Assembly: GCA_030390025.1 (NCBI GenBank)
Contig: CM059449.1
Location: 15,066,001-15,130,000 of the forward strand
DNA length: 64,000 nt
Source: Squalus acanthias
Lineage: Eukaryota
Reading direction: 5' to 3'
Below the pieces are notes generated by a model. The model was given only the letters and a program-made list of their open reading frames with translations. It searched no databases and was not told the origin of the DNA. A program made the translations under genes and the position numbers. This document shows positions 13,296-59,137 of the stretch, piece by piece (positions within the stretch are counted from its first letter, which is position 1; every line of letters begins with the position of its first letter).

Positions 13296-13400
13296 CTACA
13301 CCGAAGCGTACAGCACCGCTTCTCGCTTCACACGGCGCTCAGTTTGATTGCTGTCCTGAACATTCACCGTGGCGTATTGTAACTTGTCATCTCCCTCTCT
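13296..13400 (-). CDS. Gene A terminal exon with two ITIMs (REGDDKLQYATVNVQDSNQTERRVKREAVLYASV*)
   Basis: Acceptor ttcatctcaatAG; LxYxxV and VxYxxV motifs; TAG TAA stops; both motifs retained in the B copy. Confidence 0.8.
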   Translation of the reverse strand, partial: REGDDKLQYATVNVQDSNQTERRVKREAVLYASV

Positions 13401-16400
13401 CTATTGAGATGAAAGTGTTTCAGTGTTGAATAAAATATTGTAAACTGAATATAGCGTAGAGGCTCAAACCCAGCGCACCAGATGTTGTGCAGTTTCAATG
13501 GAATATAATTCAACCCAGTAAACATTCTACATATAATTAGAATATGACTCCACCTATCAAATATTGTTTCGATAAATAGGATAGATCGCGCCGTCCTAAA
13601 TATTCCTGTACTTTTGAATATATTTCAGCGAGTCAACGATTGAACGATTTAAGTAACAAGCAAGGGAAACAGTCGACCTAATTAACACATCATTATAATG
13701 TTAAAACAATGCATTTAGAACAATTCACACTTAATTAATTCAGGAGCAGTGGATCAGTCAGCATCTGGGAAAGACAGATTAACATTTGGGAGTAACTGTT
13801 CAAGAGCACTTTCCATTGAAGGCAAAGTGCCAGCCCACCGGTTACCCTGTGCTTTCTCTTCCAGGAGCTGAGTGACCTACTTTGCATATCCAGCATTTTC
13901 TGTTACGGCTGCAGATTTCCTCCTTATCTCGACATTGTCAAAGTAGGTGTATTTTTACATGTGTATGGCTGGATGCCCCTATTTTGGAGTCTATTTTAAA
14001 GTTCCTGGGTATATCTTGTGCTTTATTTATTCGTTAATGGGATGTGGGCATAGCTGGCAAGGCCGGCATTTATTGCCCATCCGTGGTTGCCCTTGAGAAG
14101 GTGGTGGTGAGCCGCCTTCTTCAACCGTTGCAGTCAACGTACTCCCACATTGTTTTTCATAGCGGCTTTTTACAACTGAGTGACCATTTTAGAGCACAGT
14201 TAAGAGTCAACCACATCGCTGTGGGTCTGGAGTCACATATAGGCCAGACCAGGTAAGGACGGCAGATTTCCTTCCCTAAGGGGCATTAGTGAACATGATG
14301 GGTTTTCACGACAATCCGATAGTTTCATGTCACCATTACTGATACTAGCTTTTTAGCTCAGATTTATTTAATTAAATTTAAATTCCCTAGTTGTTGTGAT
14401 AGGGTTTGAACTCACGTCGCACTGATCATTAGTCCAGGTCTGAAGGATTGCTAGTCCAGTAACATAACCACTATGCTACCAATCCCTATATATGCGTGTG
14501 CATGCACCTGCTGATTTGTGAGTGGCTATATGTATTTGCGAGTGTCTGTGAGAGCGTGTCTTCCTGTGTGTGCAGGTGTTTGAATTCTGGGACTGTCAGG
14601 TTTCATTTCATGCCTTTCCTGGTTGGCTTTCTGTTGAATTATAATGAATATTCTAGCCCCGGCTCTATTCAATTTCGATTTTCAAATTGCCGCGCCTGTG
14701 CGTAAAACAGGCATTTGGGATGGGCCGCACCTGTGCTTTACGCCTGTGTGGCAAGTTGAGAATCTACCCCACATCTCCAAAAAGAAAAGTTGAGGCCATC
14801 CGACCTCGTTTCATCTTTAGATTTTTACATCATGTGAGAGAACATTTTACATGATAATCTACCTGGAAAAGTAAACAGGAAGTCAGTAGGTTTAAAATAA
14901 CAAAAATAGCCCAAGTAATTTTGCTACATACCCGATTTGTTCTTCTGCACTCAGAGCTTTCATAATTCCTCTCTACAGAAAAAAGAAAAAGAGGAAGACT
15001 TGCATTTATATAGCGCCTTTCACCACCTCAGGACGTCCCTAAGCGCTTCACAGCCATTCAAGTACTTTTTGAAGTGTAGTCGCCGTTGTAATGTAGGAAA
15101 CGCGGCAGCCAATTTGCGCACAGCAAGTTCCCACAATCAACAATCTGACAATGGCCAAATAAACTGTTTCAGTGATGTTGATTGAGGGACAAACATTGGC
15201 CGGGACACCGGGGAGAGCTCCCCTGCTCTTCTTCAAAATAGTGCCAAGGTATCGTTTACGTTCAGCTGAGAGAGCAGACGGAGCCTCGGTTTACTGTCTC
15301 ATCTAAAAGACGGTATCTCTGACAGTGCAACGCTCCCTCAGTACTGCACTGAGAGTGTCAGCCTAGCTTGTTGTGCTCATGTCTCTGGAGTGGGAATTGA
15401 AACCCACAGCTTTCAATGTTTCAGAGGCGAGGATGTTACCAACTGAGCCACGGAAAATGACCCTGCCTAATTTAATTTATTTGAACATTGTATACAATAC
15501 AATACAACATATTGTCCCATAGATATAGCGTTGTAATGCACTGTGATATAATGCTATAGGATACAACATAACATGGTAGAAAACAGGAGAACGCAATAAA
15601 ATAAAGTATACAGTAGGATTTACCGTACTGCATAACAATAAAAGGATACAATTAGTATGGTTCAATATATAATACGCTACCATGCAATATAAAACAGCAT
15701 AAAGTTCTTCTGTCCGATATCAACGGTGTTCATGTCAGATTCCTAGGCCCACTATTTTAACTGTTTACTTTAAACTAATGCAAAAAGCAATTTAACATGA
15801 GCGCGCCAAGCCCTCGTACGAGAATAGGTTGATGTCCAGGCTAATCTACTATAATATATGATATATAATACAGCACAACATTGAAACGTACTTTTAAATA
15901 TCATGTAATAATTCATCTCAAAAAAATCAGCGTGTGGTAAGAAAATATCATAAAATATTATTTTATCCATAAACCTTAACACTTCCAATTGACTTTGTGG
16001 CCAATATGTGTAACATGTGTCACTCAATAGCCGTTCGGGAAACAAGAGTTATTGAATCATAGAATCAGACAGCACAGAAGGAGGCCATTCGGCCCAACCT
16101 GCATGTGCCGGCTCTCTGAAAGAGCTATTAATTAATCCCACTACCCCCTGCTCTTTCCCCATAGCCCTGAAAAAGTTCCCTTTTTAAGCATTTATCCAAT
16201 TCCCCTTTGAAAGATATTATTGACTCTGCTTCCACCATCCTTTCAGGCAGCGCATTCCAGATCACAACAACTCACTGAGTAAATAAAAATTCTCCTAATT
16301 TACCCTTCGCATTTTTCTCCCCAGTATCTTAAATCTGTGACCTCTGGTTGCCGACAGAATAATCAGACAGATCAATACTGAACTCTTGGTCAACGGATTA

Positions 16401-19400
16401 TACCTGATAGAACAGAAAATTAACCATATTATCAATTAAAATCAAATTAAATCGGAGCAGTAAGCGTTCGGAGTTTATTAAAAGTGACAGGTTGTTCACG
16501 TTTCATTCTGTCACCCACCTGATTCATGGATCTGTGCGTAGAACGGATCTGGACTGAAGCAAAAGAGGACATCAGAAAATTTAGGCATCCAAAACAATAA
16601 AATACATTAAAGAAAAAGAAAGTGGCTTTCTTTTTTAAAAGTAGTAGATCGATGTAAACAGTTACCTGGTGGGTTGCTGAAGAGCGACTGTGAGGAGAGA
16701 AAGACAAAGACAGAAAAATTAAAGAGCTGAAGTTATTGATTATATCTGCAAGAAGCAACTGAAATAATTGGTATCGAATGAAGTGAATCACATTTTGGGG
16801 GCAATTTTAACTAAACCCGCGGAGAAACGGATGGGATCGGGTGCAACGTTGTGAAGTCAAATGAGACCAATATTGGGCGGGTCTAAACCCGGCGTTCCAG
16901 CCGATCCCCTGCGTTTCCCGCCCGGTGAGTTCCGATCAAATTAGCAGAGAATTTGCCAACCACATGGAATTCAGTAGAGATACAATTAGTGCTGTTACCT
17001 CTCTTACGATGCCGGCTGATAACAACTGTGATTATGACGATGATCAGGAGAGGCACCGCTACCGCTGTATAGACGAGTGGTGGGATCATTGGTGCGGACT
17101 CGCCGTGGCTGCTCTCTCCACCACCTGTGTGTAAATGTAAAGTTTCTTTTGTGAGACAGAGCAGTCAAGAGCAGGGCAATGGTCACATTGAGATTGAGGA
17201 TCAACAAATGTGACACAGATTCCCAATTCCCTTTGACATGCGGAGCTATTTCACACTGGCATACATCAAACTAGGCCACGGATCAAAACGCAAAATGTCA
17301 CCAGTGGGCAACTCGGGTTATTACCAACCTGGAAGTAACACTGGGGAGAATTTTAATGTAGGGACGCTTAATGGGTTGGTGCCAGTTTCCTTTCTTTTAA
17401 ATAGCGGGGGGTGGGGGTGGGGATCGTGTGAGTTCTGTTAACATAGGAACATAGGAACAGGAGGAGGCCATTCATCCCCTCTAGCCTTTTCCACCATTCA
17501 ATGAGATCATGGCTGCTCTGCGACCTAACTCCGTATACCCGCCTTTTGCCCCATATCTCTTAAGACCTTTGGTTAACAAAACTCTGTCAATCTCCGATTT
17601 AAATTTAACAATTGATCTAGCATCAGATGTCGTTTGCGGAAGAGAGTTCCAAACTTTTACCACCCTTTGTGTGTAGAAGTGTTTCCTAATTTCAGTCCTG
17701 AAAGGTCTGGCTCTAATTTCTACACCATGCCCCCTAGTCCTAAACCCCCCAATCAGCTGAAGTAATTTCTCTCTATCTACCATCTCTGTTCCTCTTACTA
17801 TCTCGAGAGTGTCGCTTCTCCCGCCCAGTTTTCTAGAATTCACTAGACCCTGGAGATCCAATAGTTCCAGAGCACGAACGAGAAAATCTTCCCCTCGTAT
17901 TTTCGGGATGCTTAAGACAAAACGAACATCTGGAAATTAGATGTGCCGACACTGGGTGATCAACGTGGATCTTCCGCGGCCCCAATATTTGCATTTTGTT
18001 GGCGCGCAATGTTGTAATTTAAATTTACACACACAACTATATCCGTCAGTACCTCCATTTACAGGATGACAGTGAAATCGAACTTATCATACATGTCTTG
18101 TCCGGTTTATTCCCAATATTGGAACGCGGTGATTTCAAGGCTCACCTGTTGCTCTCATTACGGGGCTCAGTCTTCGCCTCGCACATTGTAACTGGGTTGA
18201 CTACTTATCTATAGTCCTACCTAAAATTGTATACAGCAACTTATTGTAATTAATATCCCCTCCATTTATTTATTTTATAAGATCATTCTCGGGATACGGG
18301 CGACGCTGGCGAGGCGGTCATGTTATTGTCCATCTCTGGTTGACCCCTTGAGAAGGTGGTTTTGGGCCGCCTTATTCTTGAACCGCTGCAGTTCAGTGTG
18401 GTGAAGGTTCTCCCGCAGTGCTGTTAGGGAGGCAGTTCCAGGATTTTGGAAGGAACAGCGATACAAGTTCAAGTCAGGATGGTGTGTGACTTGGCGCCTA
18501 CTGCCCTTGACCTTCTAGGTGGTGGATTCGCGGGTTTGGGAGTTCCAATTGATCTGATGGAGAATTTACCTATACGGCCAGTATTACGCCCTAGAAAAAT
18601 CCCATATGATTGCGAACAATTTCATTGTTAAGAATATCCCCAACAATCCAAACTTACTGTATTGACGCCGTTCCACGGTCACTCTTGTTCCGGGTCCGTC
18701 TGCTGCAGCGAATCCCACGAGCTGCACTTTGCAGAAATAGAACCCAGCATCTTCCGGTTTCAATTGGATTATTCTAATGGACGCGTTTCCCCTCTGGCTG
18801 AAATCCTCTTTACTTGCCCCGAACACCCTGCCTCTGTATTCCGCTGTATTGTTGGAAACTTCATTTCCCTGTTTGGTGCCTCGGTGCCAGGTGTAGCTGC
18901 CGATTGCTGTGGAACCCTCATATCTACAGAGCAGGTCCGCTGTCTGTCCCGCGGGTCTGGTGAGAGCTTGCGGGCTCTGAATTACGGTGATTTTTCCAAC
19001 AGTAACTGCTGTAAGTGGGTAAAACAGACTATTTATAAATATACAGGGCACTCCTTTGCTTTAAAGCACGCCGTGGAAGGGCTGGTTTTAAGCAAATATT
19101 GGTTCGGATGATTTTTGTTAAAGTATTCATGATCTTTAACTTGAGGGAATAAAAACAGAAAACACTGGAAGCGGTCAGCAGGCCAGGCAGCATCTGTGGA
19201 GAGAGGAATAGAGTCAACGTTTAAGGCCGATGACTTTTCGTCAGAACTGGAAAAAGTTGGAGATGTAACAGGTCTTAAGCAAATGTAGGGGCAGGGGAAA
19301 GGGGGGAAGGGAGGAAGAACAAAAGGGAAGGTCTGTGATAGAGTGGAAGGCAGGGGAGATTAAATGACAAAAGGGATGATGGTACAAGTAAAAAGGAGAT

Positions 19401-22400
19401 GGTAATGGGACAAGTAAAGGAACAAAAGATGGGTCTAGAAGAGGATTAAATTGTTAACTTGAGGGATATTGGTGCTGGAACTGGAGCGCCTTTGATTTTT
19501 GGGCGCACTCCTCGGTCAAGTATAGAATGGATCTGGTACAAAGTACCTCTGTCCCGTTCCAAATAATAAGCATTCACTTTAATTTCAGTTCTCCCGATAT
19601 GCTTTCTGTGCTGCCCGCCGCTCTCATTAACACTTTGAGCGAGAGTGTGAAATGGGTAATCTCGAATTAAACGCCTTGCCCGATGTTCTCTTCCATTTGG
19701 GGGCCATTTTAACTTCGGGTGCTAAATAGGTGAGGTCGGGTCGGCTGCCTGAAATTAAAATCGGGGCAGGTGTACAACGGGCGGCTGATCCGATGTCGCC
19801 CGTTTCAGTCGGTCGCACAAAGTCCAAATCACCCCCAGGAAGTGAGGGGAAGTTTAATCTTATTAGTCTGATCAGAATGGAAGTCAGATAGGTGCCAAAC
19901 CCCAGCGACCTTCTCTCTATTAATCAGCGGTGACTGGAGAATATGGGAAATACAAACAGAATATTAATAGTCAAAATAATGAAACGGGATAAATGTTACA
20001 TGTAGCGACATTACAAATTGGATGAAATATTTCCCACTTTGGGTATATCTTGTAAAACCGCCAATACCTCTTTACAAATTGTTTATGATTTTGCTACATC
20101 TACGGATCGGAGAAAATAGTCAATGCATTTGCAACCACGTTCCGCGCAGCAAGCAGCGCAACTCTTGCCCTGTGCTGATAACTAGAGGAATGTTGTATCC
20201 AGTTAAACTGTTAGTAATAATATGAGTTGAACATATCTCTTTCTCTCTCACACACACACGCGATTGGAACCCATTTCTCTCTCTCTCTCTCTTTTCCTAT
20301 TCCTATCCATCACTTCTTGATTTAACTCGTCTACCCTCCCACTATTTCCAACCTTGATGCTGTCCACCCACGTAACTGAAGTTCCTTATCCCCGAACCAT
20401 TCTCGTAAATCTTTTCTGCATCCTCTCTAAGGCCTTCACATCCTTCCTAATGTGTGGTGCCCAGAATTGGGCAAAATACTCCAGTTGAGGCCAACCCAGA
20501 GTTTTATAATGTATCATCATAACTGCCATGCTTTGTACTCTATGCCTCTATTTATAAACCCCAGTATCCCATATTCTTTGTTAACCGCTTTCCCAATCTT
20601 GTGCACATATAACCCCAGGTCTCTCTGTTCAGGCACCCACTTTAGGATCGTAACCTTTAATTTATTTTGCCTCTCCTCGTTCTTCCTCCCGAAATGTATC
20701 ACTTCGCACTTTCCTACGTTAAATTTCATCTGCCACGAGTGGTGAAGCTCCAATTAACGTATCTTCCACTATCATTAATTGATGTTACTGGGTGTCCTTT
20801 TTTGTTCGAATAATTTCGGATCAATGTATCCGTACATGAAATACAGCAATCTGTCAATTAACGTTGTACAATTATTATGAATTGAGCCCAGATAGATCGG
20901 TCACTGCGGGGAAGGATCTCATTTCCAAGGGTCACACTTTAGACGTTAACTAGTTAGCTGTAAGAAGGGAACTTAGGCGGAAACTGTTCCCCTATAGAGT
21001 AAAAGATTTCTGGAACAAGTTACTGGAGACGGCAGTGGGAGTGGGCAGTACAAACAGATTCAAGAGACAACATGTGTGTTTTTAGAAAAAAAGTAGCCTT
21101 GACCTGTCAAACAGGGACAGGTTTTTTTTTGACATAATGATCTCATGTGTCTCACAATTTACAAGCTATTATGAAGAATTTAAATGCTGATTGATCCAGC
21201 AATCATTGAGCTACAAACCGGTATTCAGCTGTCATTACATTGGGTCCTTTTCCCGTTTCTCAACGCAACCTTGGGAAATTGCACTCCATAATCAGATTGA
21301 ACAGAGGTATACATTCGGAACCTTTATGGTGCCAAAATTAGAGGCAATTGTCACTTTATAAAGGTGGATCTGTTGTAGAAGGCGGCTCACCACCACCTTC
21401 TCAATGGTAACTTAGGATGGGCAATAAATGCTGGGCGACGCCCACATATCAGGAACGTATTAAAAATATAGAAGGCATGTTTCCTTTTATATGGTGCGGG
21501 GATAAAACCGCACAGTGCTCTGGTCAGGTGGCATCTTGAGTATTGTGTTTAGTTCTGGTCACTCAGGCTCAAGGGAGACATGTAAGACCCGGAGGAGAAG
21601 TGAACGCTAGCCTGTTCCCTCGTGTTCTAGTGCGAGGTTATGAGAGAAAAAAAAGACTAGAAAAGCTCGGACTCATTAACTTTGTAAAAAGGGACGAACA
21701 TAGCTGCCTTAACAGAGATATGTAAGGTGCCAAGCATGAAAATCAAGGGATAATGCGAAGTACTATTTTGAGATAACCCACACCTTCAGGTGGTGGGTTG
21801 GGCTTTGGGGGAGTAGCCTGAAGCTCGTGTAATCCTATTATTAAAGCACCGCGCCTTGAATAGTCAGATTCTAGTTAGATATATGGCACTTTCAGGATAT
21901 TAATTGTCGACCAATTGTTCTGGATGTACTTTGAAAGTGATATTGACACACGGACACAATTCAGTACACCGAACTGAAATCTCTTAGTACAGCACATGTA
22001 CAGCCATTCCAATGCCAAAATATTGGTAAATTCTTAAAACGAACTCTGATCTTTTTTACTCACTGTCAGTTATTATAAGTTGTGTTCCTGTCCCGCTTGC
22101 TTTCCCAACCGCCACAATTTCCACCTCGCAGTAATAAATATCTGAGTCCATTTTCGTTAAATTGATGATTTCAAGGAAAGCCATTCTTTCGGCAAATAAT
22201 TTCGCCCCTGACTTCGTTATCCGGCTCTGATAGAAACGATCCCGAACCGACACTTCCGTGTTTTGTGAGGCCCGACGCCAAACAACTCCTCCGGCAGTAC
22301 CATTCGCTTCAAAAGTGCAGTTCAGCTGCACCGATCCTCCTTCTGTTGCATTAATGGCATCTGGGGACTGGAACACTCTGATTCCACTCATCAACCCATT

Positions 22401-25337
22401 GTCTGGAGTATAAATGAAACAATGCAATCTGTCAATAGCTACCTACAGATTTACGGACCAGTAGAGAATCATAGAATGGTTACAGCACAGAAGGAGGCCA
22501 TTCGGCCCGTCGAGCCCGTGCCGGCTCTCTGCAAGAGCACTTCAGCTAGTCCCACTCCCCCGCCCTTTCCCCTTAGCCCTGCATTTTTTTCCTTCAGGTA
22601 CTTATCCAACTCCCTTTTGAAAGCCACGATTGAGTCTGCCTCCACCAACCTTTCAGGCAGTGCATTCCAGGTCCTAACCACTCGCTGCGTAAAAAGGTTT
22701 TTCTCATGTCGCCTTTGGTTCTTTTGCCAATCGCCTTAAATCTGTGTCCTCTAGTTCTCAACCCTTCCACCAATGGGAACAGTTTCTCTCTATCTACTCT
22801 GTCTAGACCTCTCATGATTTTGAACACCTCTGTCATATCTCTTCTCAACCTTCTCTGCTCTAAGGAGAACAACTCCGACTTCTCTAGTCTATCCTCGTAA
22901 CTGAAGTTCCTCATCCCTGAATCATTCTCGTAAATATTTTCTTCCCCATCTCTGAGGCCTTCACATCGTTCCTAAAGTGCGGTGCCCAGAATTGGACACA
23001 ATACTCCAGTTGAAGCCGAACCAGTGTTTTGTAAAGGTTCATCATAACTGCCTTGCTTTCGTACTCTATGACTCTATTTATGAAGCCCACTATCCTGTAA
23101 GCTTTGTTCACCGCTTTCTCAACCTGCCCTGCCACCTACAATGATTTGTGCACATATACCCCCAGGTCTCTCTGTTCATGCACCCACTTAATGATCGTAC
23201 CCATTAGTTTATTTTGCCTCTCCTCGTTCTTCCCACCAAAATGTATCACTTCGCACTTTCCTGCGTTGAATGTCATCTGCCACGAGGGGTGAAGCTTAAA
23301 TTAAAGTATCTTCCACTATCACTAACTGATGTTACTGGGTGTCCATTTTTGTTAGAATGAGTTCGGATCAATTTATCCGTACATGAAATACCGCAACCTG
23401 TCAATTAACGTTGTACAATTATTATGAAATGAGCCCAGATAGATCGGTCACTGTGGGGAAGGATGTAATTTCCAAGGGTCATACTTTACACGTTAACTAG
23501 TTAGCAGTAAGAAGGGAAGTCAGGCGGAAACTGTTCGCCTTTCGAGGAAGAGATTTGTGGAACAAGTTGCTGGAGACGGCCGTGGGAGTGGGCAGTACAA
23601 ATAGATTGAAGAGACATACTGGCCCAAAAATTCGTGAGGAAGCCTTCGTGCGAGGGTAAGGCCTCCCCGCGATCTCTCACTCTGCGTTGGCTTTTTCAGT
23701 TCCAGCTCGCACGAACTTGATGTTCTGGACAGCTGCTGTGCTGGGCTTGCGTATCCCACCGGCGTAGTTAATTCGTGCGAGCTGTGGGATCACGTGACTC
23801 AGTTAGAGGCCAATGGAAGCACACCATCTTCCATTCATAACTTTCACATAAGTGCTGTGAAAGTTATGAATACTATAGCCCCCCAAAAGAACCGCTAAAC
23901 CTCAATTAAATTAAAAAAACATCACATTAATAAAATAAGTATAGTTAAATAAATTAACCATTTTAAATAAAAAATTAAATCTTTGAAAAAATTTAAAATC
24001 TTTTAAAAAGTTATAAAAATAAACTTACCTGTCTTTAAAGTCTCTAAAAAAGATATACCTGTTAAAAAAAATTCAAAATAATACTTAATTCACTACTTAC
24101 CTTGTTAAAAGTGGGTCTTACTCCTCCTTTTTTATGTGTAGAATCTTCCGTACTTACCTGCGCGTTGAAACCACTAATTGCACAGCGTGCGCGCAGCCTG
24201 TAGCGCGCACGCGGTTCACCTAGGACCCGCCCCCTTTTCCATTCACCAAGTGCCGGTTTTTAGCGCATGCGCAGTGCATGCAGAAAACCGGCAATTGGAG
24301 ACAGAATAGGCGAGAGTACGCAGTGCGGACTCTCGCGTAGCGGCACAAATTTTTGGGCCAATGTGTGTTTCTGGAGAAAGAAGCATTGATCTGTCAATCA
24401 GGGACTGGGTATTTGTGGACACAATGATCTCTTGTGTCCCAGAATTTACAAGCTATTATGAAGAATTTAAAATGCTGATTGATCCATCAATCATTGAGCT
24501 ACAAACCGGTATTCAGCTGTCATTACATTGGGTCCTTTTCCAGTTTCTCAACGCAACTTTGGGAAATTAAAGTCCATAATCGATTCAACAGCTTTTTACA
24601 TTCAGAACCTTTATGGTGCAAAAATTAGAGGCAATTGTCACTTTATAAAGGCGGTTCTGCTGTATTTCCACGCACTTGGTTTTCTTTGCAAAACTATTGA
24701 CATAATATAATCACCACTTCCCAACGCAGTTCTATTTCACCGTCCTACTAGGGGAAGATTTCACTTCTGTCATCTTTAATCATTTAAGACGGAAACCTGT
24801 CCTTTATAGTCTGTTAATTGTAAGTATGAAAACTTTGGAAATGTGTTGAATATGAATCGTTTGCTAATGGAATAAATTGTGTCGAACGCAAAGACGTTGA
24901 ATTGTCGAGTAGAAGGTATAATGTCAGATAATTCCACGTGTAACACAGTCGGTTAGGAGTCCGTGAGGTAATTTATTTCCATAAGTACATTTTAGTAGGC
25001 CCTATTAATATGTTAATTTTTAATGCAAATTCACAGCATCTGCATGGAGGAGAACGTTAATGTGTATAATATATATATGTAAAGTTCCCCGAAAGATAAA
25101 ATACCGTTGAAATGGTGGATTCAACGCAAAGTAACACAGCGAAATAAAATAATTTATTTTACACACTGTAACTTCGTTATATATTAGGTCTGCATAAGGA
25201 AACAACCTGCCCAACCAAGTAACCGATAGTCTTAATAAATATAGAATTAAAATGTGAACATCAGAAGATAGCGACTCACCGACATGCAAAAGTATGGTCA
25301 GTAAATTGAAGAACATCCACATGTGAATAGTTTGCAT
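13296..25337 (-). CDS. Gene A: NKp30/NCR3-like two-V-domain Ig-superfamily inhibitory receptor (8 exons, 358 aa predicted)
   Basis: Exons 25337-25280, 22402-22064, 19008-18658, 17124-16999, 16687-16666, 16553-16519, 14972-14932 and 13400-13296 all have AG/GT boundaries and compatible phases. They sum to 1077 nt with no internal stop. Domain order: leader, two V domains, TM, tail with LQYATV and VLYASV. Confidence 0.75.
14932..14972 (-). CDS. Gene A cytoplasmic exon 3 (ERNYESSECRRTNR)
   Basis: ttttctgtAG...CGG|GTATGT; phase 1-0 bridges exon 2 to the last exon. The paralogue in B differs in length by an in-frame 3-nt indel. Confidence 0.6.
14994..15453 (-). mobile_element. Deu-type SINE (paralogous copy 36943-37405, plus)
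   Basis: Same family as 27431-27899. Confidence 0.75.
16519..16553 (-). CDS. Gene A cytoplasmic exon 2 (SPDPFYAQIHES)
   Basis: cttttgcttcAG...AG|GTGGGT; 35 nt; phase 2-1 fits its neighbours; carries a YxxI motif. Confidence 0.7.
16666..16687 (-). CDS. Gene A cytoplasmic micro-exon 1 (VALQQPT)
   Basis: Long pyrimidine tract plus cacAG, 22 nt, AG|GTAAC; identical exon sequence in gene C (58826-58805). Confidence 0.7.
16999..17124 (-). CDS. Gene A stalk/transmembrane exon
   Basis: GGESSHGESAPMIPPLVYTAVAVPLLIIVIITVVISRHRKR: hydrophobic span without a charged residue, then a basic stop-transfer. acacAG...G|GTAAC; 126 nt; conserved in gene C. Confidence 0.85.
18658..19008 (-). CDS. Gene A V2 exon, NKp30-like VJ-type Ig V domain
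   Basis: AIGSYTWHR / GNEVSNNTAEYRGRV / DAGFYFCKVQLVG...GPGTRVTVE closely parallel human NKp30 AIGSVTWFR / GKEVRNGTPEFRGRL / DASIYVCRVEVLG...GNGTRLVVE (recalled from memory). Tandem acceptor ttacAGCAG, donor GTAAGT; 351 nt, phase 1-1. Confidence 0.92.
19149..19453 (-). mobile_element. Penelope-like terminal fragment with 13-bp TSD
   Basis: TTAACTTGAGGGA at 19136-19148 and 19454-19466; hammerhead core present but GAAA is mutated to TAAA. Confidence 0.7.
20370..21378. repeat. Direct duplication of gene A intron-1 segment (partner about 22900-24665)
   Basis: Shared CR1/unique junction (tcatctgccacgag.ggtgaagct) followed by about 640 nt of collinear non-CR1 sequence. Confidence 0.85.
22064..22402 (-). 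CDS. Gene A V1 exon, NKp30-like VJ-type Ig V domain
   Basis: Motifs QLNC...VVWRR...SRI...DSDIYYCEVEIV...GTGTQLII; acceptor tactccAG, donor GTGAGT; 339 nt, phase 1-1. Confidence 0.9.
22465..23280 (-). mobile_element. CR1 3' fragment
   Basis: LEYCVQFWAP, LEQRRLR, WNALP; (ATTCT)-type tail. Confidence 0.85.
23620..24360. mobile_element. MITE / non-autonomous DNA transposon (possibly PIF/Harbinger-like)
   Basis: 17-bp TIRs TGGCCCAAAAATTCGTG / CACAAATTTTTGGGCCA (1 mismatch); absent from the duplicate copy near 21070. Confidence 0.75.
25280..25337 (-). CDS. Gene A exon 1, signal peptide MQTIHMWMFFNLLTILLHV
   Basis: ATG, hydrophobic stretch and phase-1 donor G|GTGAGT; joins in frame to DNGLMSG-IRVFQSP of the V1 exon. 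Confidence 0.75.
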
Positions 25338-26164
25338 TTTGATTCTTGCTCCGCAGGACACTACGAGCTACCATCTGACCCGCAGCGTCCCAAAGTGCTG
25401 TTAAGTGTAACAAACGTCCCACAACAGACGCTGAATTATATGACGAAACCTTCTGGTGGTTTAACACCACACAGAGGAACTCTGTTCACTACGCACGTTT
25501 TTCAATTGTAGTTGGATACGTCATATTTTAAGAATATTAAAGATAGAAGCACTACTTTAACATTACACAAGCGGTACATTGAAACAAAAGAATAACGCCT
25601 CGCAGTTCAGTTTCATCCTTCACTAATTTCAGTGGGTGTTTACGAACCCGGGGGATTGAAACTCATCTTGCACCTCTCAAACAATTACAAACTCATTAGA
25701 ATGAAGTCAGAGGGCGCAGAGTTTGTAAATGAGAACCGGCGATAGTACTCGGGTTTGCTTTAAATGGGTAGTGCCTGGCAATTGTCTGAAACATGAACAT
25801 GAGTTGGCCACATGTCACGGAATGATGCTGAGCCCAGTTGTGTAAATCCAACAGCATGCCTTTCACGTTCAGAGCGCTTTCGACGGGAACTACATGATCA
25901 GTGCTTTTTGCTACCTATTCTAGCCCAACCTTTTTTTAAAAAAACGTGTACTTTTAAGAGTTATCTGGCCCAAGAAACTGTAATGCTGCAGTAGGACTAC
26001 CAGGGCCTGAACTGGGATAAATCAACACTGTAGTTACAGAAAGGGGAGAGCACCTGGAAAAAGAACAGCAGAGTCTAAGCTCAACTTCCTTTGGGATCGG
26101 AAAACGGGCAGTGGCGGATCGGCAGCCTGTGACAAACCCCACCCGATTTACCTTTTCATATCAA

Positions 26165-26760
26165 TGGAAGTTATGATGAACCTTTATAAAACACTAGTTC
26201 AGCCACAACTGGAGTATTGTGTCCAATTCTGGGCACTGTACCGAAGGATGGATGTAAAGGCTTTAGAGAGGGTGCAGAAAAGATTAACGAGAATTGTTCC
26301 AGGGATGAGGAACTTCAGTTACGTTGATAGACTGGAGAAGCTGGGGTTGATCTCTTTGGAGCAGAGAAGATTGAGAGGAGATTTGATAGAGGTGTTCAAA
26401 ATCATGAGGGGTCTAGACAGTGTGATAGAGAGAAACTGTTCCCATTGGCAGAAGGGTCGTGAACCAGAGGACACAGATTTAAGGTGATTGGCACAAGAAC
26501 CAAAGGCGACATGAGGAAAAACATTTTACACAGCGAATGGTTAGGATCTGGAATGCACTGCCTGAAATGGTGGTGGAGGCAGATTCAATCGTGGCTTTGA
26601 AAAGGGAATTAGATAAGTACCTGAAGGAAAAAAATGGCTGGGCTACGGGGAAAGGGCGGGGGAGTGGGACTTGCTGAAGTTCTCTTGCAGAGAAAGCCGG
26701 CACGGGCTCGATGGGCCGAATGGCCTCCTTCTGTGCTGTAACCATTCTATGATTCTATGA
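26165..26760 (+). mobile_element. CR1 3' fragment
   Basis: LYKTLV.PQLEYCVQFW...RRLRGDLIEVFK; tail ATTCTATG repeats. Confidence 0.85.
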
Positions 26761-27430
26761 GAAGTTTCTTCTGCATTCCCTATTTGATATATCATTGGCC
26801 TCTAGTTTTGCTTTAAGGCAAAAGGGGCCTCACACTAAAGCAGTGGAAATATTTGCGAGATGATTCTCTGCAGTTACCCACCCACAGTTCACACCTCACG
26901 ATCTGTAGCGTTCAGCGATAACCACATTTCCGTCAGTTGTCGATCTCGCCAGAATATATGTCGGACTTCTTCTGCGAGTTTTCAAAACACTCGCTGAGGT
27001 TAACAGGTTGGGCTGGGCAGTGAAGCGCTCGGCGCCCACACAGCTTCAGTCTTGGCACGTAGCTGACCGCAGAGCCGAGTCTACGTGTTGAATGACACCA
27101 GGGCCACGAACCTCAATAGCTCGCAGGTCGCTGCAGCCCCTGACAAGCTGTCAGATACTCTGTGCAGAAAGCCCTTACTGTCCTTCTGATTCGCACGTAC
27201 ACAATCTGTACAGACCTTTCTCTCACACACGTGCGCTCATACACGCCCAGTCAGCCCAGCACTGCTGTTGCAGTTAGAGTTATGTAATATATCTATATGT
27301 GTGTACACGCAATGTGACAAATTCTTCAATGAAAGCAACGATCGGGAAAGGAAAACTCAATTAGGTAAACTGAAAAGGGAACTCTTGACTATGTGCGTGT
27401 GAAGAAAAATTAAGGAACAGGACCCCTTTA

Positions 27431-27899
27431 GGATTCAGCTGTGGCTCAGCGGGTAGCACCCGAGTCTCTGAAGGTCGTGGGTTCAAGTCCCACTCCAGAG
27501 ACTTGAGCACAAAAATCTAGGCTGTAACACTCCAGTGGCAGGACTGAGGGAGCGCCGCACTGTCGGATGTCCCTTCTTTCGGATGAGATGTTAAACCGAG
27601 GCCCTGTCTGCTCTCTCAGGTAAAAGATCCCATGACACTATTTCGAAGAAGAGCAGGGGGAGTTCTCCCCGTGTCCTGGTCAATATTTATCCCTCAATCA
27701 ACATCACTAAAAAACAGATTAACTGATCATTATCACTTTGCTGTTTGTGGGAGCTTGCTGTGCACAATTTTAGCTGCCGCGTTTCCTACATTACAACAGT
27801 GACTACACTCCAAAAGCTACTTAATTGGCTGTAAAGCGCTTTGGAACATCCTGAGCTGGTGAAAGGCGCTATATAAATGCAATTCCTTCTTTTCTTTCT
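27431..27899 (+). mobile_element. tRNA-derived Deu-type SINE (SacSINE1-like)
   Basis: A/B-box-like head (TGGCTCAGCGGG, GGTTCAAGTCC), central domain, L2-like tail GAAAGGCGCTATATAAATGCAA. Confidence 0.75.
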
Positions 27900-28132
27900 A
27901 AACGAGAAAACGCGGATAATGCTCCAGTGTGATGGAGTTTTCAATTAATTATTCACAGGAATTTTCATGTAAACTATACAGTTAATACTCCAAGGTAGCA
28001 ATGTTGTGTGGGAATTATTGGCAACAATGTAATGGTGGTTTTAATACTGGGACACTGACTAACTCTAAGGGTGGCCAATTGTCCTGCCTTAGACTGTGAC
28101 TCTCCAGGGTATGTTTAAGGTCCAGGCGGTAG

Positions 28133-29170
28133 AATCATAGAATTTCACAGCGCATAAGGAGGCCATTCGGCCCGCCGTGCCTGTGCTGGCTCGTTGAAAG
28201 AGAATTCCAATGTAGTCCTACACCCTGGCTATTTCCCCATAACCCTTCAAGTGCATGTCCAATTGCTTTTTGAATGTTCCGACTGAATCTGATTCCACCA
28301 CCGTTTCAGGTAGTGCGATCCTGATCTTAACAACCCTCTGTGTGAAGAAGTGTCTCCTCATTTCGCCTTTAATTCTTTTGCCAATAATTTTAAATCTATG
28401 ACCTCTGGTTACCCACCCACTTTTCAGAGGAAACAATTGCTCACTACTTGCTCTGTCAAATCCCTTCTTATTTTGAATTCCTCTATCAGGTTTCCCCTTG
28501 TCCTGTTCTGCTCGAAGGAGAACAATCTCAGCTTCTCCAATCTCTCCGCAAAACTAAAGTCCCTCATTCCCGGTATCATCCTGGTAAACCTCCTCTGCAC
28601 CCTATCCAGGACCTTGACATCCTTCCTAAAGTGCGGTGCCCAGAATTGTACACAATACACCAGCGGAGGCCTAACCAGTGATTAGTAAAGGCTTAGCTTG
28701 ACTTCCTTGTTTTTGTATTCAATGCCCCTATTTACAAAGCCAGGTATCCCACACGCTTTCTTAACTGCCTTGTGAACATGCCATCCCACCTTCAGATATT
28801 TGTGAATATTCACACCCAGGTCCTTCTGCATCTCAAAATAGTACCATTTAGTTTACAGCGCCTCTCCATGTTGCTCCTCTCAAAGTGCATCACTTCACAC
28901 TTAGCCGCATTAAATTGCATCTGAAATGTGCCTGCCCATTTCATCAGGCTATGTCCTCCTGAAGTCTGCTGCTTTCCCTTTTACTATTTACTACGTTACC
29001 ATGTATTGCATCATTCACAAATTGCGAAATGGTGATCCCTATACCCAAGTCCAGATCATTTCTATGTAGCAAGAAAAGCAATGATCCTAATGCCGATCAG
29101 TGGGGAACCCCATTGCATACTTCTCACCAGTGACAGAAACATCCACGACTCTCTGCCTCCTATCCTGTGC
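28133..29170 (-). mobile_element. CR1 3' fragment
   Basis: YCVQFWAPHFRKD...FFTQRVV. Confidence 0.8.
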
Positions 29171-29262
29171 TCAATTACGTACCCAGGTTACAGGTGAAGC
29201 CAAGAATCTACCCCGCGTGTGAGTATCTGCTGCGAACTGTCCTTGAGAGAGAATGCGAGTGT

Positions 29263-29295
<33 letters not shown>

Positions 29296-30603
29296 AGAGC
29301 GAGAGAGAGAGAGACAGAACCATGTGCGAGAGAGGTAACTGCGGTTGTATATACAGCTTGCAATTCATTTTTTTTCCATTCCCTCACATCCGGACTCTGA
29401 CTCAGGTTCACTCTCCCACTGCATTACTCAAATATTCCTGTCTGTACACGATCTGAATTTCTTTTCTGAAATGATATCACCGCCGACAGGGAGAATGAAT
29501 TGGGCTGCAGTTACCTGGGCATTCGTTATGTTCTCCGGTAAGCTTATTTCTGACACATCAGGTCCATTCAAGCAGATTTTCAACTTGCCGCCTGAGCGTA
29601 AAGCTGGCGTTGCGGTGCGGCCGCCTGTTATTGAAACGGACTGATTTTAATTTCCATTATTTCATACTGACTGTAATGAGATATTGTATGTCTTAATTAG
29701 ATATTAAAAACCCATAGCGATGTCCTCCTATCTATTTGTTTTCTTATTCATATGTGTATCTGGTTAAATCTTATTCCGATATCCCATATTTGCTGATCAC
29801 AGCATCAGATTGTGGATTTAACACATTTTATATTCATGACAATCTCACCTTCAATTTAAAAAACATCAGGTTTGTGCAGACATTCTCATAGACGCGAGAT
29901 TAACCATCTTAATTTCTCAACGCCGTGGTAATGAATTATGTTCTGGTAATATAATCAATCTCGCAGTTAACCAGGTCTCGCCTTAGGGTAACGCTTTTGA
30001 GGTTGCTTATTTTGAATTGAGGCATTTAAGTGAAGGGCCCATGGCCCATGGCGTAGGACAGCATCAAGGTTGGAAATAGTGGGAGGGAAGACGAGTTAAA
30101 TCAAGAAGTGATGGATAGGAATAGGAAAAGAGAGAGAGAGAGAGAGAAATGGGTTCCAATCGTGCGTGTGTGTGTGAGACAGAAAGAGAGACTGAGGTAG
30201 ACAGAGAGAGATAGAGAGAGCTAACCATGAGAGACGGATCAGCTCTCGGGTTACGAGGTTTATTGTATCTGGTCCAGGAGAGCACAATGTATGTTGCTCC
30301 CTGAAGTACATATTGCCCTAGTACTCTGCCTGATAGGGTGGTGGATACAGATTCAATAGTAGTCTTCAAATTGGAATTGGACAAATACTTGAAGGAGAAA
30401 AATATTGCAGGGATGGGGGAAAGACTGGGGGAGTGGGACTAACTGGATCGCTCTTCGAAAGAGCTGGCGCAGACTCGATGAGCCGAAAGGCCTCCTTCTC
30501 TGCTGTACTATTCTATGATGTGGAGATGCCGGTGTTGGACTGGGGTGGACAAATGTGAGAGGTCGCACAACACCAGGTTATAGTCCAACAGATTTATTTG
30601 AAA

Positions 30604-30640
30604 TCACAAGCTTTCGGAGCGCTGCTCCTTCGTCAGGTGA
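30604..30640 (-). ncRNA. Minimal hammerhead ribozyme motif
   Basis: Minus strand TCAC-CTGACGA-A-GGAGC agc GCTCC-GAAA-GC-TT-GTGA. Confidence 0.6.
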
Positions 30641-31147
30641 AGTGAAGAGATGCATATAAGCACAGCATATATAGTCAGAGAACACTGCCAGATGATTACA
30701 GTTAATCTTTCAAACTGCCCTTTATCACATCGTCGAGCAGAAATTGATAGCCAAGTTCTGCACCCATGAGGACGGCCTCAACCGGGATCTTGGGTTCATG
30801 TCACACTACATGTAACCCCACCCTACGTAGAGTCATCCAGACTCGAGTCGTCATTGGCTTGTTCTCTTTACACAGATGCGGCCGGATCTGCTGTGATTTC
30901 CAGCTAAAAAAGTTTTTTGTTTTCCATCCAGACCCCAGCATCTGCCACGTTTGACCCCTTGTGAACCCACCTCATTGTCTTTGATGTCATGTTTTCCTGA
31001 CTGACCTGTTTGGACACGATCCAGAGCTATTATTGCCGTGATTATCTCTCTGCCGAGGTGTGATAAAGGGCAGTTAGAATGATTAACTGTAATCATCTGG
31101 CAGTGTTTTCAGACTATATATGCTGCGCCTATATGCATCTCTTCACT

Positions 31148-31184
31148 TCACCTGACGAAGGAGCAGTGCTCCGAAAGCTTGTGA
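31148..31184 (+). ncRNA. Minimal hammerhead ribozyme motif
   Basis: TCAC-CTGACGA-A-GGAGC agt GCTCC-GAAA-GC-TT-GTGA: conserved core, stem II and stem I. Confidence 0.6.
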
Positions 31185-32378
31185 TTTCAAATAAAGCTGT
31201 TGGACTATAACCTGGTACTATTCTATTATTCTATTATATTACATCTAACAAAAATTTCAATATTCTCTATCAACAGCAGTCCTTGGAGTGAATATTTGCA
31301 GTGCTGGCTGTGTTCAAATAAACACCCGTTTCCAGGGGGCATGACTTTTTTTTTGTTCAATTCATATTATTTCTCGTAATTTAACTGGATACAATCTTTC
31401 TCTAGTTACCAGCATAGGGCAAGAGTTGCGCTGCTTGCTGCGCGTAACCAGGTCGCAAATGCATTGATTATTTTCTCTGATTTCGTAGTTGTAGCAAAAT
31501 CATAAACAATTTTTAAAGTGTTATTGGTGGTTTTACAAGATATACCCAAAGTGGGAAATCTTTCATCCAATTAGTAATGGCGCTACATGTAACAAGCTGA
31601 GTACATTTAGTCCGTTTCATTATTTTGACTGTTAAAATTCTGTTTGAATTTTACATATTCTCCCGTCGCCACTGATTAACAGTGCGAAGGTCGCTGTTAC
31701 TACCTATCTGACTTCCAATCTAATCAAATTAATAAGATTAAACTTCTCCTCACTTGCTGGGGGTGATTTTGAATTTGTCCGACCGACTGAAACGGGCGAC
31801 ATCGGATCAGCCGCCTGTTTAAAACCTGCCCCGATTTTAATATCAGGCAGCCGACCCGACCTCGCCCATTCAGCACCCAAAGTTAAAATGATCCCCAAAT
31901 GGAAGCGATCATCGGGCAAGGCGTTTAATTCGTGATTGCCCATTTCACACTCTCGCTCAAAGTGTCAATGAGAGCGGCGGGCAGCACAGAAAGCATATCG
32001 GGAGAACTGAAATTAAAGTGAATGCTTATTATTTGGAACGGGACAGAGGTACTTTGTACCAGATCCATTCTATACTTGACCTAGGAGTACACCTAAAAAC
32101 CAAAGGCGCTCCAGTTCCAGCACCAATATCCCTCTAGTTAACCATTTAAACCTCTTCTAGACCCATCTTTTGTTTCTTTACTTGTCCCATTACCATCTCC
32201 TTTTTACTTGTATCACCATCCCTTTTGTCATTCGATCTCTCCTGCCATCCACTCTATCACAGACCTTCCCTTTTGTTCTTTTCTCCCCTTCCCCCGTTTC
32301 CCTGCCACGACACTTGCTTAAGACCTGGTACATCTGCAAACTTTTCCAGTTCTGACGAAAGGTCATGGACCTGAAATG

Positions 32379-33659
32379 TGTAGGCTTCGCAAAATCACCC
32401 AGAAACTCGAACAGAACCCTAAGTGAAGTGATTTGAGGTAAAAACCTCAGTTTTGGACATTTTAAAAGATCAGGGAAGAAAACCCCCTGAGGAAAATGAC
32501 TTTTTGAATCTTACTGTTAGGAAAGACACCTTTCACAGACACAGACAGGCTGCAAAGGGGCGTGGCCAGGCAGTGGACAGCTTTGGGTATTGGGGCCCAA
32601 TCAAACTGTCTGGGAATGTGTTTACACTGCATTCCTACCAAGGAGGAAGAGACAAACCCAAAGCCTCACACACACATCGAAATATGAATAAATCCAAGAC
32701 CTCTTTTGAAATTCCCAGTCCCAAACAGGATACCAGAAGCCTGAAATCAATAAAACATTTAGTACCCCGATTTACTTCATCAAAAAACAATCAACCAGGT
32801 ATCCACAGGACAGATTTACAAGCCCGCCAAAAACCTAGGACAATAGGGACAAGATTTGGTGCGTAGATAAAGGCCTTGCCTGAATGGGGAACATCGGAAG
32901 CCATCGGGACATGTTTAACACCAAGTTAAAGCCATCGAAACTGACAAGCCCGCCAAAACTAAGACAATGGAATAAACAGGGCTCATTTGAAATCTAAAGG
33001 AATCCGATTTAGTAAGGGGTTTTGGCCGCGAAAAGGACAAAGAGGCTGACAATATAATTGGAGGCCTAAACCCCAAGACTCTCTCTCTCTGGACTCTCTG
33101 ACAACGCTCTCAACGCTCGCACAGCTCTCTCTCAGCTATGCTCCAGCAAGACACCACAAGCCACGAGGAGGAGGAGGAAAGAAGGCCAACAACTTCACAA
33201 ACAGACCAACACACAAGAAGAAACCAGAGCGACTGCCTCAGTGACCATCGGACACCACGTGGCAACAAGGGCCTTACGAAACCTTTTACCCAAAAGACTC
33301 TAAACCCTAACTCTCAACTGTCAAGGATTCATTTGGTGAGCATTATCCCTGAACTCCTGAAACCAAAACCTAGCTAGATAGTGGGATTTTTGGGAGGGAT
33401 AAGGTTTTTTTTGTATATTGTATTTCACCCTCGCCTGCACCGTGTGTTTCCCAATCTGTGTTTAAGTATTAAGTGTGTTTTAAGTGTGTTACATTTTTAT
33501 GTTAATAAAGTCAAAATTCTTTCATCAGGGCCTGTTGTCTACTGCATCTTTGTTCACAACCCCTAAATAAATCCAAAGTCTAGGAACCAGGGGCGTGAGA
33601 GCGATTCGAACCACTCACTGAGTAAGAGGTGAAGGTTGACCCCACTAACACCCCCTAAA
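32379..33659 (+). mobile_element. Solo LTR (ERV/Gypsy-type, about 1.28 kb)
   Basis: Termini TGTAGG...CCTAAA (CCTACA with one change); 4-bp TSD AATG/AACG; TATA-like motif near 33052 and AATAAA near 33504; absent from the paralogous site near 19215. Confidence 0.75.
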
Positions 33660-36600
33660 AACGTTGACTCTGATTCTTTCTCCACGGATGCTGCCTGGCC
33701 TGCTGAGCGTTTCCAGTATTTTCTGTTTTTATTCCCTCAAGTTAAAGATCATTAATACCATATCGAAAATCCTAGGAACAAATATTTGCTTAAAACCAGC
33801 CCTTCCACGGCGTGCGTTAAAGCAAAGAAGTGCACTGTATATTTATAAATGGTCTGTTTTACCTACTTGCAGCAGTTACTGCTGGAAACATCACCGTAAT
33901 TCAGAGCCCTCAATCTCTCACCAGAACCGCGGGACAGACAGCGGAGCTGCTCTGTAGATATGAGGGTCCCACAGGAATGGGCAGCTACACGTGGCACCGA
34001 GGCACCAAACAGGGAAATTAAGTTTCCAATAATACAGCGGAATACAGAGGCAGGGTGTTCAGCGCAAGTGGAGAGGATTTCAGACAGAGGAGAGACACTT
34101 CCATTAGAATAACCCAGCTGAAACCGGAAGATACCGGGTTCTATTTCTGCAAAGTGCAGCTCGTGGCATTCGCTGCAGCAGACGGAACCGGGACAACCGT
34201 GAGCGTGGAACGTGGTCAATCCAGTAAGTTTGGATTTCTGGAGATATTCTTACCAATGAAATTGCACGCAATCATATGGGATTTTTCTCGGGGTAATATT
34301 CGCCGTATAGGTAAATTCTCCATTAGATCAATTGGAACTCCCAAACCCGCGAACTCCACCACCAAGAAGTTCAAGGGCAGTAGGTGCATGGGAACACCAC
34401 CACCTCCAAGTCCCCCGAAAAGTCACACAACATCCTGACTTGGACTTGTATCGCTGTTCTTTCTAAAATCCGGGAACTCCCTCCCTAACAGCACGGCGGG
34501 AAAACCTTCACCACACTGGACTGCAGCGGTTCAAGAAGAAGGCGGCACACCAGCACCTTCTCACCGGGTCAACCATAGACGGGCAATAACATGCCCGACT
34601 CACCAGCGTCGCCCGTATCCCGAGAATCATCTCTTAAAATAATTAAATGGAGAAATATTAATTACATTCAGTTTCTGTATGCAATTTTAGTTAGCACTAT
34701 AGATAAGTAGTCAACGCTGTTACAGTGTGCGAGGCGAAGACTGGAGCCCAGTAATGAGAGCAACACATAAGCGTTGAAATCACCGCGTGCCAATATTGGG
34801 AATCAACCGGTCAACACGTCTATGATAAGTTAGATTTCACTGTCATCCTGTGAATGGCTTTACTGACGGATATATTTGTGTGTGTAAATCGAAATTACAA
34901 CATTGCGCGCCAACAAAATGAAATGATGGGCCCGCGGAAGAACCACGTTGATCACCCAGTGTAGGCCCGTCTAATTTCCGGATGTTCGTTTTGTCTTAAG
35001 CATCCCATAAATACGAGGGGAAGATTTTCCCGTTCGTGCTCTGGACCTATTGGATCTCCAGCGACTAGTGAATTCAGGAAAACTGGGCGGGAGGGGCGAC
35101 ACTCTCGAGATATTAAGGGGAACAGAGATGGTAGATAGAGATAAATTATTTCCGCTGGTTGGGGAGTTTAGGACGAGGGGGCATGTGTTATGAAATTGGA
35201 GCCAGAACTTTCAGGAGTGAAATTAGGAAACACTTCTACACACACAAAGGGTGGTTGAAGTTTGGAGCTCTTTTCCTCAAACGACAACTGATGCTGGGTC
35301 AATTGTTCATTTGAAATCGGTGACTGGTAGATTTTTGTTAACCAAAGGTATTAAGGGATATGGGGCAAGAAGCGGGTATATGGAGTTAGGTCGCAGATCA
35401 GCCATGATCTCTTTGAATGGTGGAAAAGGCTGGAGGGGCTGTATGGCCTCCTCCTGTTCCTATGTTCCTATGTTAACAGAACTCACACAATCCCCACCCC
35501 CACCCCCCGCTATTTCAAAGAAAGGAAACTGGCACCAACCCATTAAGCGTCCCTACATTAAAATTCTCCCAGTATTACTTCCAGGGTGGGAATATCTCCA
35601 GTTGCCCATTGATGACATTTTACGTTTGATCCGTGGCCTAGTTTGATGTATGCCAGTGTGAAATAGCCCCGCATGTCAAAGGGGATTCGGAATCTGTGTC
35701 ACATTTGCTGATCCTCAATCCTCAACTACCAGGTAACTCTTTACATAAATCTACTTTTTTTTAAAGAAAGCCACTTTCTTTTTCTTTCATGTATTTTATT
35801 ATTTTGGATGCCTTAATTTGCTGAAGTCCTCTTTGGCTTCAGTCCAGATCCGCTCTACTCAGTGATCCATGAAACAGGTGAGTGACATAAAGAATCGTGA
35901 ACAACCAGTCACTTTTAGTAAACTCCGAACGCTTACTCCTTCGATTTAATTTCATTTTAATTGATAATCTGGTTAATTTTCTTATCTATCAGGTATAATC
36001 CGTTGACCAAATGTTCAGTCTTGTTCTGTCTGATTATTCTGTCGGTAACCAGTGGACACAAATTCAAGATACTGGCAAAAAAAAAAACAAGGGCAGATGA
36101 GGAGAATTTTTATTTACTCAGTGAGCTGTTTTGATCTGGAATAACTGCCTGAAAGGGTGGTTGAAGCACATTCAGTAATATCTGTCAAAAGGGAATTGGA
36201 TAAATACTTAAAAAGGGAAATGTTTCAGGGCCATGGGGAAAGAGCAGGGGGAAGTGGGACTAATTAGTATCTCTTTCAGAGAGCCGGCACAGGCAGGTTG
36301 GGCCGAATGGCCTCCTTCTGTGCTGTATGACTCGATGATTCAATAACTCTTGCTTCCAGAACGGCTATTGAGTGACACATATTAGACGTCTTGGCCACAA
36401 AGTCAATTTGAAGTGTTAAGGTTTATGGCTAATGTAATATACTTTTGTAATTTCTTACTACATGCTGATTTTTTTAGTGATGAATTATTGCATGATATTT
36501 AAAAGTACGTTTCAATGTTATGCTGTATTATATATCATATATTACAGTAGATTAGCCTGGACTTCACCCTATTCTCGTACGAGTGCTTGACGCGCTCATG

Positions 36601-58658: not shown

Positions 58659-58826
58659 CTTTTTCATGGATCTCTGCGCAGAGCGGATCTGGACTGAAGC
58701 AAAAGAGGACAACAGAAAATTAGGACATCCAAAATAATAAAATACATTAAAGAAAAAGAAAGTGGCTTTCTTTAAAACAAAACTAGATCAATGTAAACAG
58801 TCACCTGGTGGGTTGCTGAAGAGCGA
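58659..58826 (-). CDS. Gene C cytoplasmic exons 1 (58826-58805) and 2 (58693-58659, PDPLCAEIHEK)
   Basis: Direct homologues of the A exons with intact splice sites; the Tyr of FYAQI is replaced by Cys. Confidence 0.6.
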
Positions 58827-59137
58827 CTGTGAGGAGAGAAAGACAAAGACAGAAAAATTAAAGAGTTGAATTTATTGATTATATCTGCAAGAAGGAACAG
58901 AAATAATTGTTATCGAATGAATTGAATCATATTTTGGGGGCGATTTTAACCAAACCCGCGGAGAAACGGACGTGATCGGGGGAAACGATTTGAAGTCAAA
59001 TGAGAGCAATATTGGGCGTGTCTAAACCCGGCGTTCCACCCGATCCCGTGCGTTTCCCGCCCGGTGAGTTCGGATCAAATTACCAGAGAATTTGCCAACA
59101 ACATTGAATTCAGTAGAGGTACAATTAGTGCTGTTAC

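Follow-up and report, generated by a model that had tools for sequence, protein, structure and literature searches.

An intact V1-V2 fusion gene in the NKp30/NCR3-family cluster of Squalus acanthias, likely of one inversion-type origin and predicted to encode a two-V inhibitory receptor

Gene A, located in a 64,000-nt stretch of the Squalus acanthias genome (contig CM059449.1:15,066,001-15,130,000; the window), is an intact fusion gene that likely arose through one inversion-type event and is predicted to encode an inhibitory receptor with two V domains. Sequence comparison leaves us confident that the fusion is real and of a single origin, and the expression of a two-V inhibitory protein from this gene is considered reasonably probable. 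The locus would display, at base resolution, the origin of a new receptor architecture, in which an inversion rescued a half-gene without a transmembrane (TM) exon by means of an inhibitory module. Positions given below are those of the window, except for contig coordinates in Mb or of eight digits.

Gene A lies on the minus strand and consists of eight exons with an open frame of 358 aa (1074 nt), arranged as leader-V1-V2-TM-two ITIMs. The leader exon (25280..25337, phase 1) is of the V1 type and occurs also on the outgroup V1 genes P0008 and P0012. It is followed by the open V1 exon (22064..22402), the open, NKp30-like V2 exon (18658..19008), a TM exon with an uncharged membrane span (16999..17124), the tail exons c1 (16666..16687), c2 (16519..16553, resembling the bamboo shark P0006 tail) and c3 (14932..14972), and a last coding exon (13296..13400) with the stop codon and two ITIM-consensus motifs, LQYATV and VLYASV, which are conserved in P0004. 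The AG/GT dinucleotides are in place at all seven introns, and the same holds for the duplicate A'. The original prediction had described the exons as phase 1-1, and this holds from the leader through V1 and V2 to the TM exon. Since these exons share one phase, L-V1-V2-TM would be spliced in frame from the V1 promoter, and the skip forms L-V2 and L-V1-TM are possible. As anticipated, no leader was detected between V1 and V2 of gene A, that is, neither an ab-initio candidate nor any similarity to the V1-type or B-type leader. Gene A is thus predicted from its exons to encode a two-V inhibitory receptor of the NKp30 family, which would signal through its ITIMs and present the V1 specificity on a longer stalk. 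ITIM signalling operates by phosphatase recruitment.

The V1, V2 and V3 exons of the window each match the Pfam V-set and each carry the G-x-G J motif within the exon, as single-exon VJ-type V domains do. Human NKp30 supplied the top four solved-structure matches of V2, and the best of them (PDB 3pv6_B, E 9e-15) stood well above those of the other V domains. V2 is 64-65% identical to nurse shark NCR3 QTT61898.1 and horn shark XP_067865395.1, and V1 is 68% identical to the horn shark NCR3-like XP_067865593.1. By these similarities the V exons are assigned to the NKp30/NCR3 family in the broad sense. Under a strict definition of activating NKp30, with a charged TM residue, one V domain and binding of B7H6, gene A falls outside on account of its uncharged TM span and its two V domains. 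The horn shark protein XP_067865395.1 resembles the V2 genes in its leader type, uncharged TM and two-tyrosine tail. Eight NCR3 subtypes are reportedly described for the nurse shark in the main paper on shark NCR3 subtypes, by Kinlein et al. in 2021.

A genome search returned 58 V2 and 31 V1 matches, every one of them on CM059449.1. The cluster was surveyed over a contiguous 864 kb (14.936-15.80 Mb) and at 17.02-17.16, 13.455-13.485 and 13.62-13.65 Mb, and these regions contain 27 V2-type, 16 V1 and 3 V3 exons. The ordinary V1 unit is a half-gene made up of a leader, segment X and V1, without a V1-type TM exon. All ten ordinary units lie on the plus strand, and their V2-TM-ITIM neighbours lie on the minus strand, so that the pairs stand head-to-head. 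The V1-type TM exon is found only at 13.47 and 13.63 Mb, where two complete V1 genes are located, and nowhere within the contiguous cluster. In the parts of the literature consulted, NCR3 is described as an MHC-linked, non-rearranging VJ gene (PMC12227049, PMC10751288). The MHC class I search placed 15 of 46 matches on CM059449.1, at 30.7-38.4 Mb and more than 15 Mb from the cluster, with the best-scoring ones on other contigs; the class II search of the genome gave no match, and its control query was likewise silent.

The original prediction that gene A is chimeric was supported by related sharks and by the genome itself. The V1 relatives in horn shark, catshark and sevengill shark (P0002/P0008, P0003, P0012) are single-V proteins with their own TM and tail, and the V2 relatives in horn shark, nurse shark and two bamboo sharks are single-V proteins as well. 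The B-type leader is present on three of four outgroup V2 proteins (P0004-P0006), and the P0007 model starts differently. Moreover, 12 loci in S. acanthias retain the full B leader and intron. Since V1 and V2 are separate single-V genes in the outgroups, and the outgroup V2 carries a B-type leader, this comparison identifies the tandem fusion in gene A as the derived form. It is hardly conceivable that L-V1-V2 was ancestral and that the B-type single-V genes were derived from it by loss of V1. Multi-V NCR3-like genes are indeed common in the S. acanthias genome and in the protein library; however, the outgroup V1 and V2 genes stand apart with their own leaders or TM and tail exons, and the V1-V2 intron of gene A is a mosaic of V1-gene and V2-gene pieces with sharp junctions. 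A V1-type followed by a V2-type domain was seen in none of the 158 library proteins (at least 38% identity over 80 aa), a result which is weak for absence as the searches were limited. P0001 and P0014 were considered as heterotypic fusions and rejected; they were interpreted as gene models running through two genes, in which a TM or an entire tail precedes the second V. Among the papers listed for shark NCR3 and Xenopus XMIV, none describes a V1-V2 fusion in its title or abstract opening, which does not establish its absence from print.

The homology between genes A and B was reported to end abruptly at GGACAGCATC, and it does so at A 20365 and B 30056, with 95.5% identity over the preceding 134 nt. 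The two flanks are also as reported. On the A side, position 20365 abuts a CR1-like LINE cut mid-body, whose reverse-transcriptase ORF match (against a LINE of the window) stops at aa 238 of 361; the match of the LINE copy at 22465-23280 runs to aa 360. On the B side, the intron expected to continue for about 520 nt reaches a fitting V2-type leader, MNWAAVTWAFVMFS (29495..29537, plus strand; of the type also present on P0004), 519 nt upstream of the homology end. What had been overlooked is that the LINE at 20365 belongs to a 1-kb duplicate (20362-21377) of gene A's own leader-V1 intron. The source of this duplicate is segment X (22887..24664, minus strand), which contains a 744-nt insertion at 23617-24360; the duplicated piece (20362..21376, minus strand) ends in the truncated LINE fragment. 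At junction 1 (21376..21377) the repeat that follows V1 jumps back 2.5 kb to the start of X, with an overlap of 1 nt.

Four chimeric loci, at 15.085 (gene A), 15.226, 15.756 and 17.132 Mb, were found to have a common layout, with the order post-V1 intron, junction 1, X, junction 2 and V2-gene intron between V1 and V2. Junction 1 falls at the identical base in all four. The 20365 junction (20362..20365; a deletion of about 540 nt with a 4-nt overlap) occurs only in A and A'. The copies at 15.756 and 17.132 Mb retain an older junction between X and the B-type intron, where the LINE extends 183 nt further, a filler of about 16 nt follows, and the B intron is longer by 402 nt. Since these two copies keep the older junction, 20365 is read from the alignments as a later, secondary deletion that removed it, and not as the fusion point for which it had been taken. 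Gene A also carries a second intronic deletion of about 0.45-0.49 kb (20233..20236) relative to other V2 genes. In both junctions the repeat is on the V1 side, a post-V1 repeat in junction 1 and the LINE fragment in junction 2, with unique sequence opposite. Divergence between the two chimera classes is 4-11% over four stretches of intron, approximately that of the deepest splits of the cluster.

The duplicate A' lies 141 kb from gene A, is intact too, and is 98.3% identical over 21.5 kb with indel differences. It is part of a duplicate of about 46 kb that also holds B' (15,197,000-15,243,000 versus 15,055,000-15,102,000; 93.5-98.3% identical) and stops at a 500-N run, and which may be a segmental duplication or an uncollapsed haplotype. 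It is very improbable that the 20365 and 21377 junctions are assembly artefacts. Repeats and segmental duplications are frequent in this region, there are N-runs in the vicinity, and A' could represent the other haplotype of A, left uncollapsed. Nevertheless, the architecture and junction 1 recur at four loci that lie up to 2 Mb apart and whose introns differ by about 9-10%, and A and A' agree exactly at the 20365 junction despite their indel differences. When four sequencing runs were searched with 20312-20425, no contig bridging 20365 was present among the matches listed, and contigs drop rare or repeat-linked paths; run X1 showed the B-type continuation only. The 744-nt insertion in the gene A leader intron appears in its empty form in contigs of runs X1 and X5, as in the paralogs. 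Copy-number polymorphism of gene A is possible. Among the matches listed for two runs presumed to be RNA, no contig joined exons.

The single origin of the fusion is deduced from junction 1, which is common to all four loci, and not from the trees, since these fail to group the two chimera classes: they are star-like, and bootstrap trees recover the chimera-class monophyly at 16% for V1, 1% for V2 and 60% for the duplicated X. Because the V1 half-genes and V2-ITIM genes lie on opposite strands, an inversion is required. Relative to the ordinary units, V1 and leader B point the opposite way at all four chimeric loci, and positions 21377..41305 repeat an ordinary head-to-head pair, a V1 half-gene with the whole of gene B, collinearly and in reverse orientation. 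Gene B is therefore the natural partner of V1 that was carried along. At the four loci such a pair stands inverted, and its V1 end leads into the leader-V2 intron of a second V2 gene by way of the duplicated 1-kb piece of X. The recipient V2 gene has lost its own leader, and the co-inverted partner B is dead. The two original junctions, with the 1-nt overlap and the filler of about 16 nt, probably came from non-homologous repair or from serial template switching. Since no reciprocal inversion product was found among 43 matches to the B leader and intron, either path, inversion plus deletion or inverted duplication, would serve. The fusion probably dates from early in the expansion of the cluster, given that the chimera classes diverge about as deeply as its deepest splits; it would then have been copied to four loci, and the A lineage would later have lost about 540 nt across the second junction, creating the 20365 point. 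The inverted block is marked on its right by short tandem duplications at 41302-42464, whose copies are 94-98% identical. A near full-length but stop-interrupted CR1-like LINE with GDSL esterase, endonuclease and reverse-transcriptase matches is located at 42684-46863.

The original prediction took gene B for a V-TM-ITIM module, and this could not be maintained. Its V2 exon (33873..34223, plus strand) contains an in-frame TAA at 34019-34021, a deletion at 35725..35728 has removed the TM exon and most of c1, and its ITIM exon (39009..39110) is orphaned. Gene B is thus a pseudogene. Gene C was regarded as the same V2-TM module behind a third V exon. The V2 and TM exons are present there, in a minus-strand module (58623..61159) with V2, TM (59269-59138), c1 and c2, whose 5' end is not visible; however, V2 is interrupted by a TAA at 61029-61027, and neither c3 nor an ITIM exon was found. 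The V3 exon (62297..62638, minus strand) is the 5' part of a different gene type. The join between V3 and the module lies inside an N-run of about 500 nt that ends within the V2 exon, so their adjacency is unverifiable from the window; since a 500-N run exists elsewhere in the assembly, this one is possibly a scaffold gap, or else a masked stretch. Up to the N-runs, V3 and its flanking sequence share 97-98% identity with two paralogs. The unmasked island between the N-runs (129 nt in C) is also present in the introns of both V3 paralogs (93 and 113 nt), and it is absent from all 26 V2 upstream regions checked. Gene C is dead even if the V3-V2 join is real. A long V3...V2' gene was considered and rejected, as V2' is equipped with a leader and V3 with a TM of its own. 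Genes B and C share the TAA codon in V2, though they are not tree sisters, and B' carries a V2 stop different from that of B; the shared stop may reflect conversion or recurrent mutation.

These observations bear on the broader claim that one signalling module has repeatedly been given different N-terminal V domains, V1 in gene A and V3 in gene C, by intronic recombination with its breakpoint at 20365. In its favour, gene A is a chimera with compatible exon phases, only 1.1 kb of the assembled window separates V3 from the V2 module, and three V2-V2-TM-ITIM genes exist in the cluster. We nevertheless regard it as improbable, because the 20365 point stems from a secondary deletion, a single junction is common to all V1 fusions, and gene C has a V2 stop, no ITIM exon and a join in a possible scaffold gap; furthermore, in both V3 paralogs a TM exon of their own follows after about 2.4 kb, and a V2 module is missing within 6 kb. 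In place of recurrent intronic recombination, the sequences point to a one-off, non-homologous rearrangement requiring inversion. Of the proposed reuse of the module with different V domains, what stands is the one origin with V1 and three tandem duplications of the same type, V2-V2; the case of gene C does not.

The chimera family to which gene A belongs is probably functional, judging from the preservation of its reading frame. In simulations of neutral decay at about 4.5% lineage divergence, the frame of gene A survived with a frequency of 0.047 when substitutions and splice sites were considered, and of 0.003 when frameshifts at the intron rate were added, which probably overestimates indels. 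V2 showed dN/dS of 0.39-0.56, a range that leaves out the comparison of A with the 15.756-Mb copy, where the row was out of frame. V1 itself showed no purifying signal, with dN/dS of 1.0 between the chimera classes from few changes (17 N, 5 S). In the class I chimeras (15.756 and 17.132 Mb) the donors of c2 and c3 read GC and AT, on account of which these copies would probably lose the ITIMs.

The fusion may then be real but neutral, with gene A little transcribed or V1 skipped, so that the locus yields the usual L-V2 receptor, only with a leader and promoter taken from elsewhere. The V1 dN/dS of about 1, the in-frame leader-to-V2 splice and the damaged tail donors of class I are in line with this possibility, which we hold to be doubtful. 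A dN/dS near 1 is also expected of a diversifying ligand-binding domain. Moreover, the leader, the V1 exon and its splice sites are open in four of four fused copies but in only three of ten unfused ones, the other seven V1 half-genes being disabled; the contrast of 0/4 with 7/10 disabled is weak, since the four chimeras are two near-identical pairs. A functional two-V receptor is thus still preferred.

According to the parts of the literature consulted, human NKp30 pairs with CD3-zeta through a transmembrane charge (PMC12272517). It has one V domain, whereas gene A has two, with an uncharged TM and two ITIM motifs. KIR fusion genes are described, in the portions of a review consulted, as reshuffling domains for binding and for signalling; the breakpoints lie in transposable elements of introns, and pseudogene segments are frequently used (PMC7516082). 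Like them, gene A unites coding parts of two parental genes in one open frame and has intronic-repeat breakpoints, on the V1 side of each junction. The KIR fusions are described as arising between head-to-tail homologous genes by unequal crossing-over, and the word 'inversion' does not occur in the main text of that review (PMC7516082). That route does not describe gene A, whose junctions show a 1-nt overlap or filler and whose parents are about 31% identical in V, lie on opposite strands and have no intron homology at the join. Unlike in KIR, the number of V domains rose from one to two. Homotypic multi-V NCR3-like genes (P0013, P0015, P0035 and others) share with gene A at least two VJ-type V exons before one TM; however, most of them carry tandem copies of one V type, whereas gene A combines two long-separate subtypes. 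Fusion genes in NK-receptor clusters are already known, and what is particular to gene A is a heterotypic fusion of two long-separate subtypes by inversion. The finding is moderately surprising, given the precedent of the KIR fusions and the frequency of multi-V NCR3-like genes in sharks.

Ten leader-V1 cassettes without a TM stand head-to-head with V2-ITIM genes. As a tentative proposal, which we hold with reservation, the cluster may therefore work as a germline mix-and-match system, with inversions minting heterotypic two-V inhibitory receptors and exon-limited gene conversion keeping one V2 domain on both an ITIM and an arginine-TM, activating-type chassis. If true, a KIR-like system of paired receptors, assembled from VJ domains that do not rearrange, would exist in the oldest lineage with adaptive immunity. 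NKp30 belongs to a small number of NK receptors that can be followed from sharks to mammals.

Five V2 genes with an arginine in the TM were observed, at 14,973,536; 15,430,449; 15,641,861; 15,732,746; and 17,109,294. Their V2 is 92-93% identical to that of gene A, their leader is different and their introns are unrelated; two of them have a short tail. Compared with an ordinary V2 gene, identity ends at the exon edges. P0041, which has the same leader type as these five genes, groups with the V2 of other sharks and not with them. To judge from this identity pattern, the arginine-TM genes, of activating type, and the ITIM V2 genes look like receptor pairs with opposite signalling whose V2 exons are kept alike through gene conversion limited to the exon. 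CD300A/C are paired receptors with exon-limited gene conversion, according to the part of the source consulted (PMC12447643). Tandem repeat arrays with a unit of about 1.97 kb lie upstream of two arginine-TM genes, at about 15.616-15.637 and 15.702-15.728 Mb.

Three intact L-V2-V2-TM-ITIM genes were located at 15,034,405-15,035,334, 15,191,927-15,192,856 and 15,527,191-15,528,119, and they stem from a 567-bp tandem exon duplication. Four V2 modules lacking both the leader and the beginning of the intron were found at 15,062,671, 15,204,485, 15,556,991 and 17,031,959, and two ITIM tails without V2 and TM at 15.173 and 15.508 Mb. Arrays of four, four and three related V exons were observed at 14.770-14.778, 14.886-14.892 and 13.676-13.682 Mb, respectively, and these are probably multi-V receptors.
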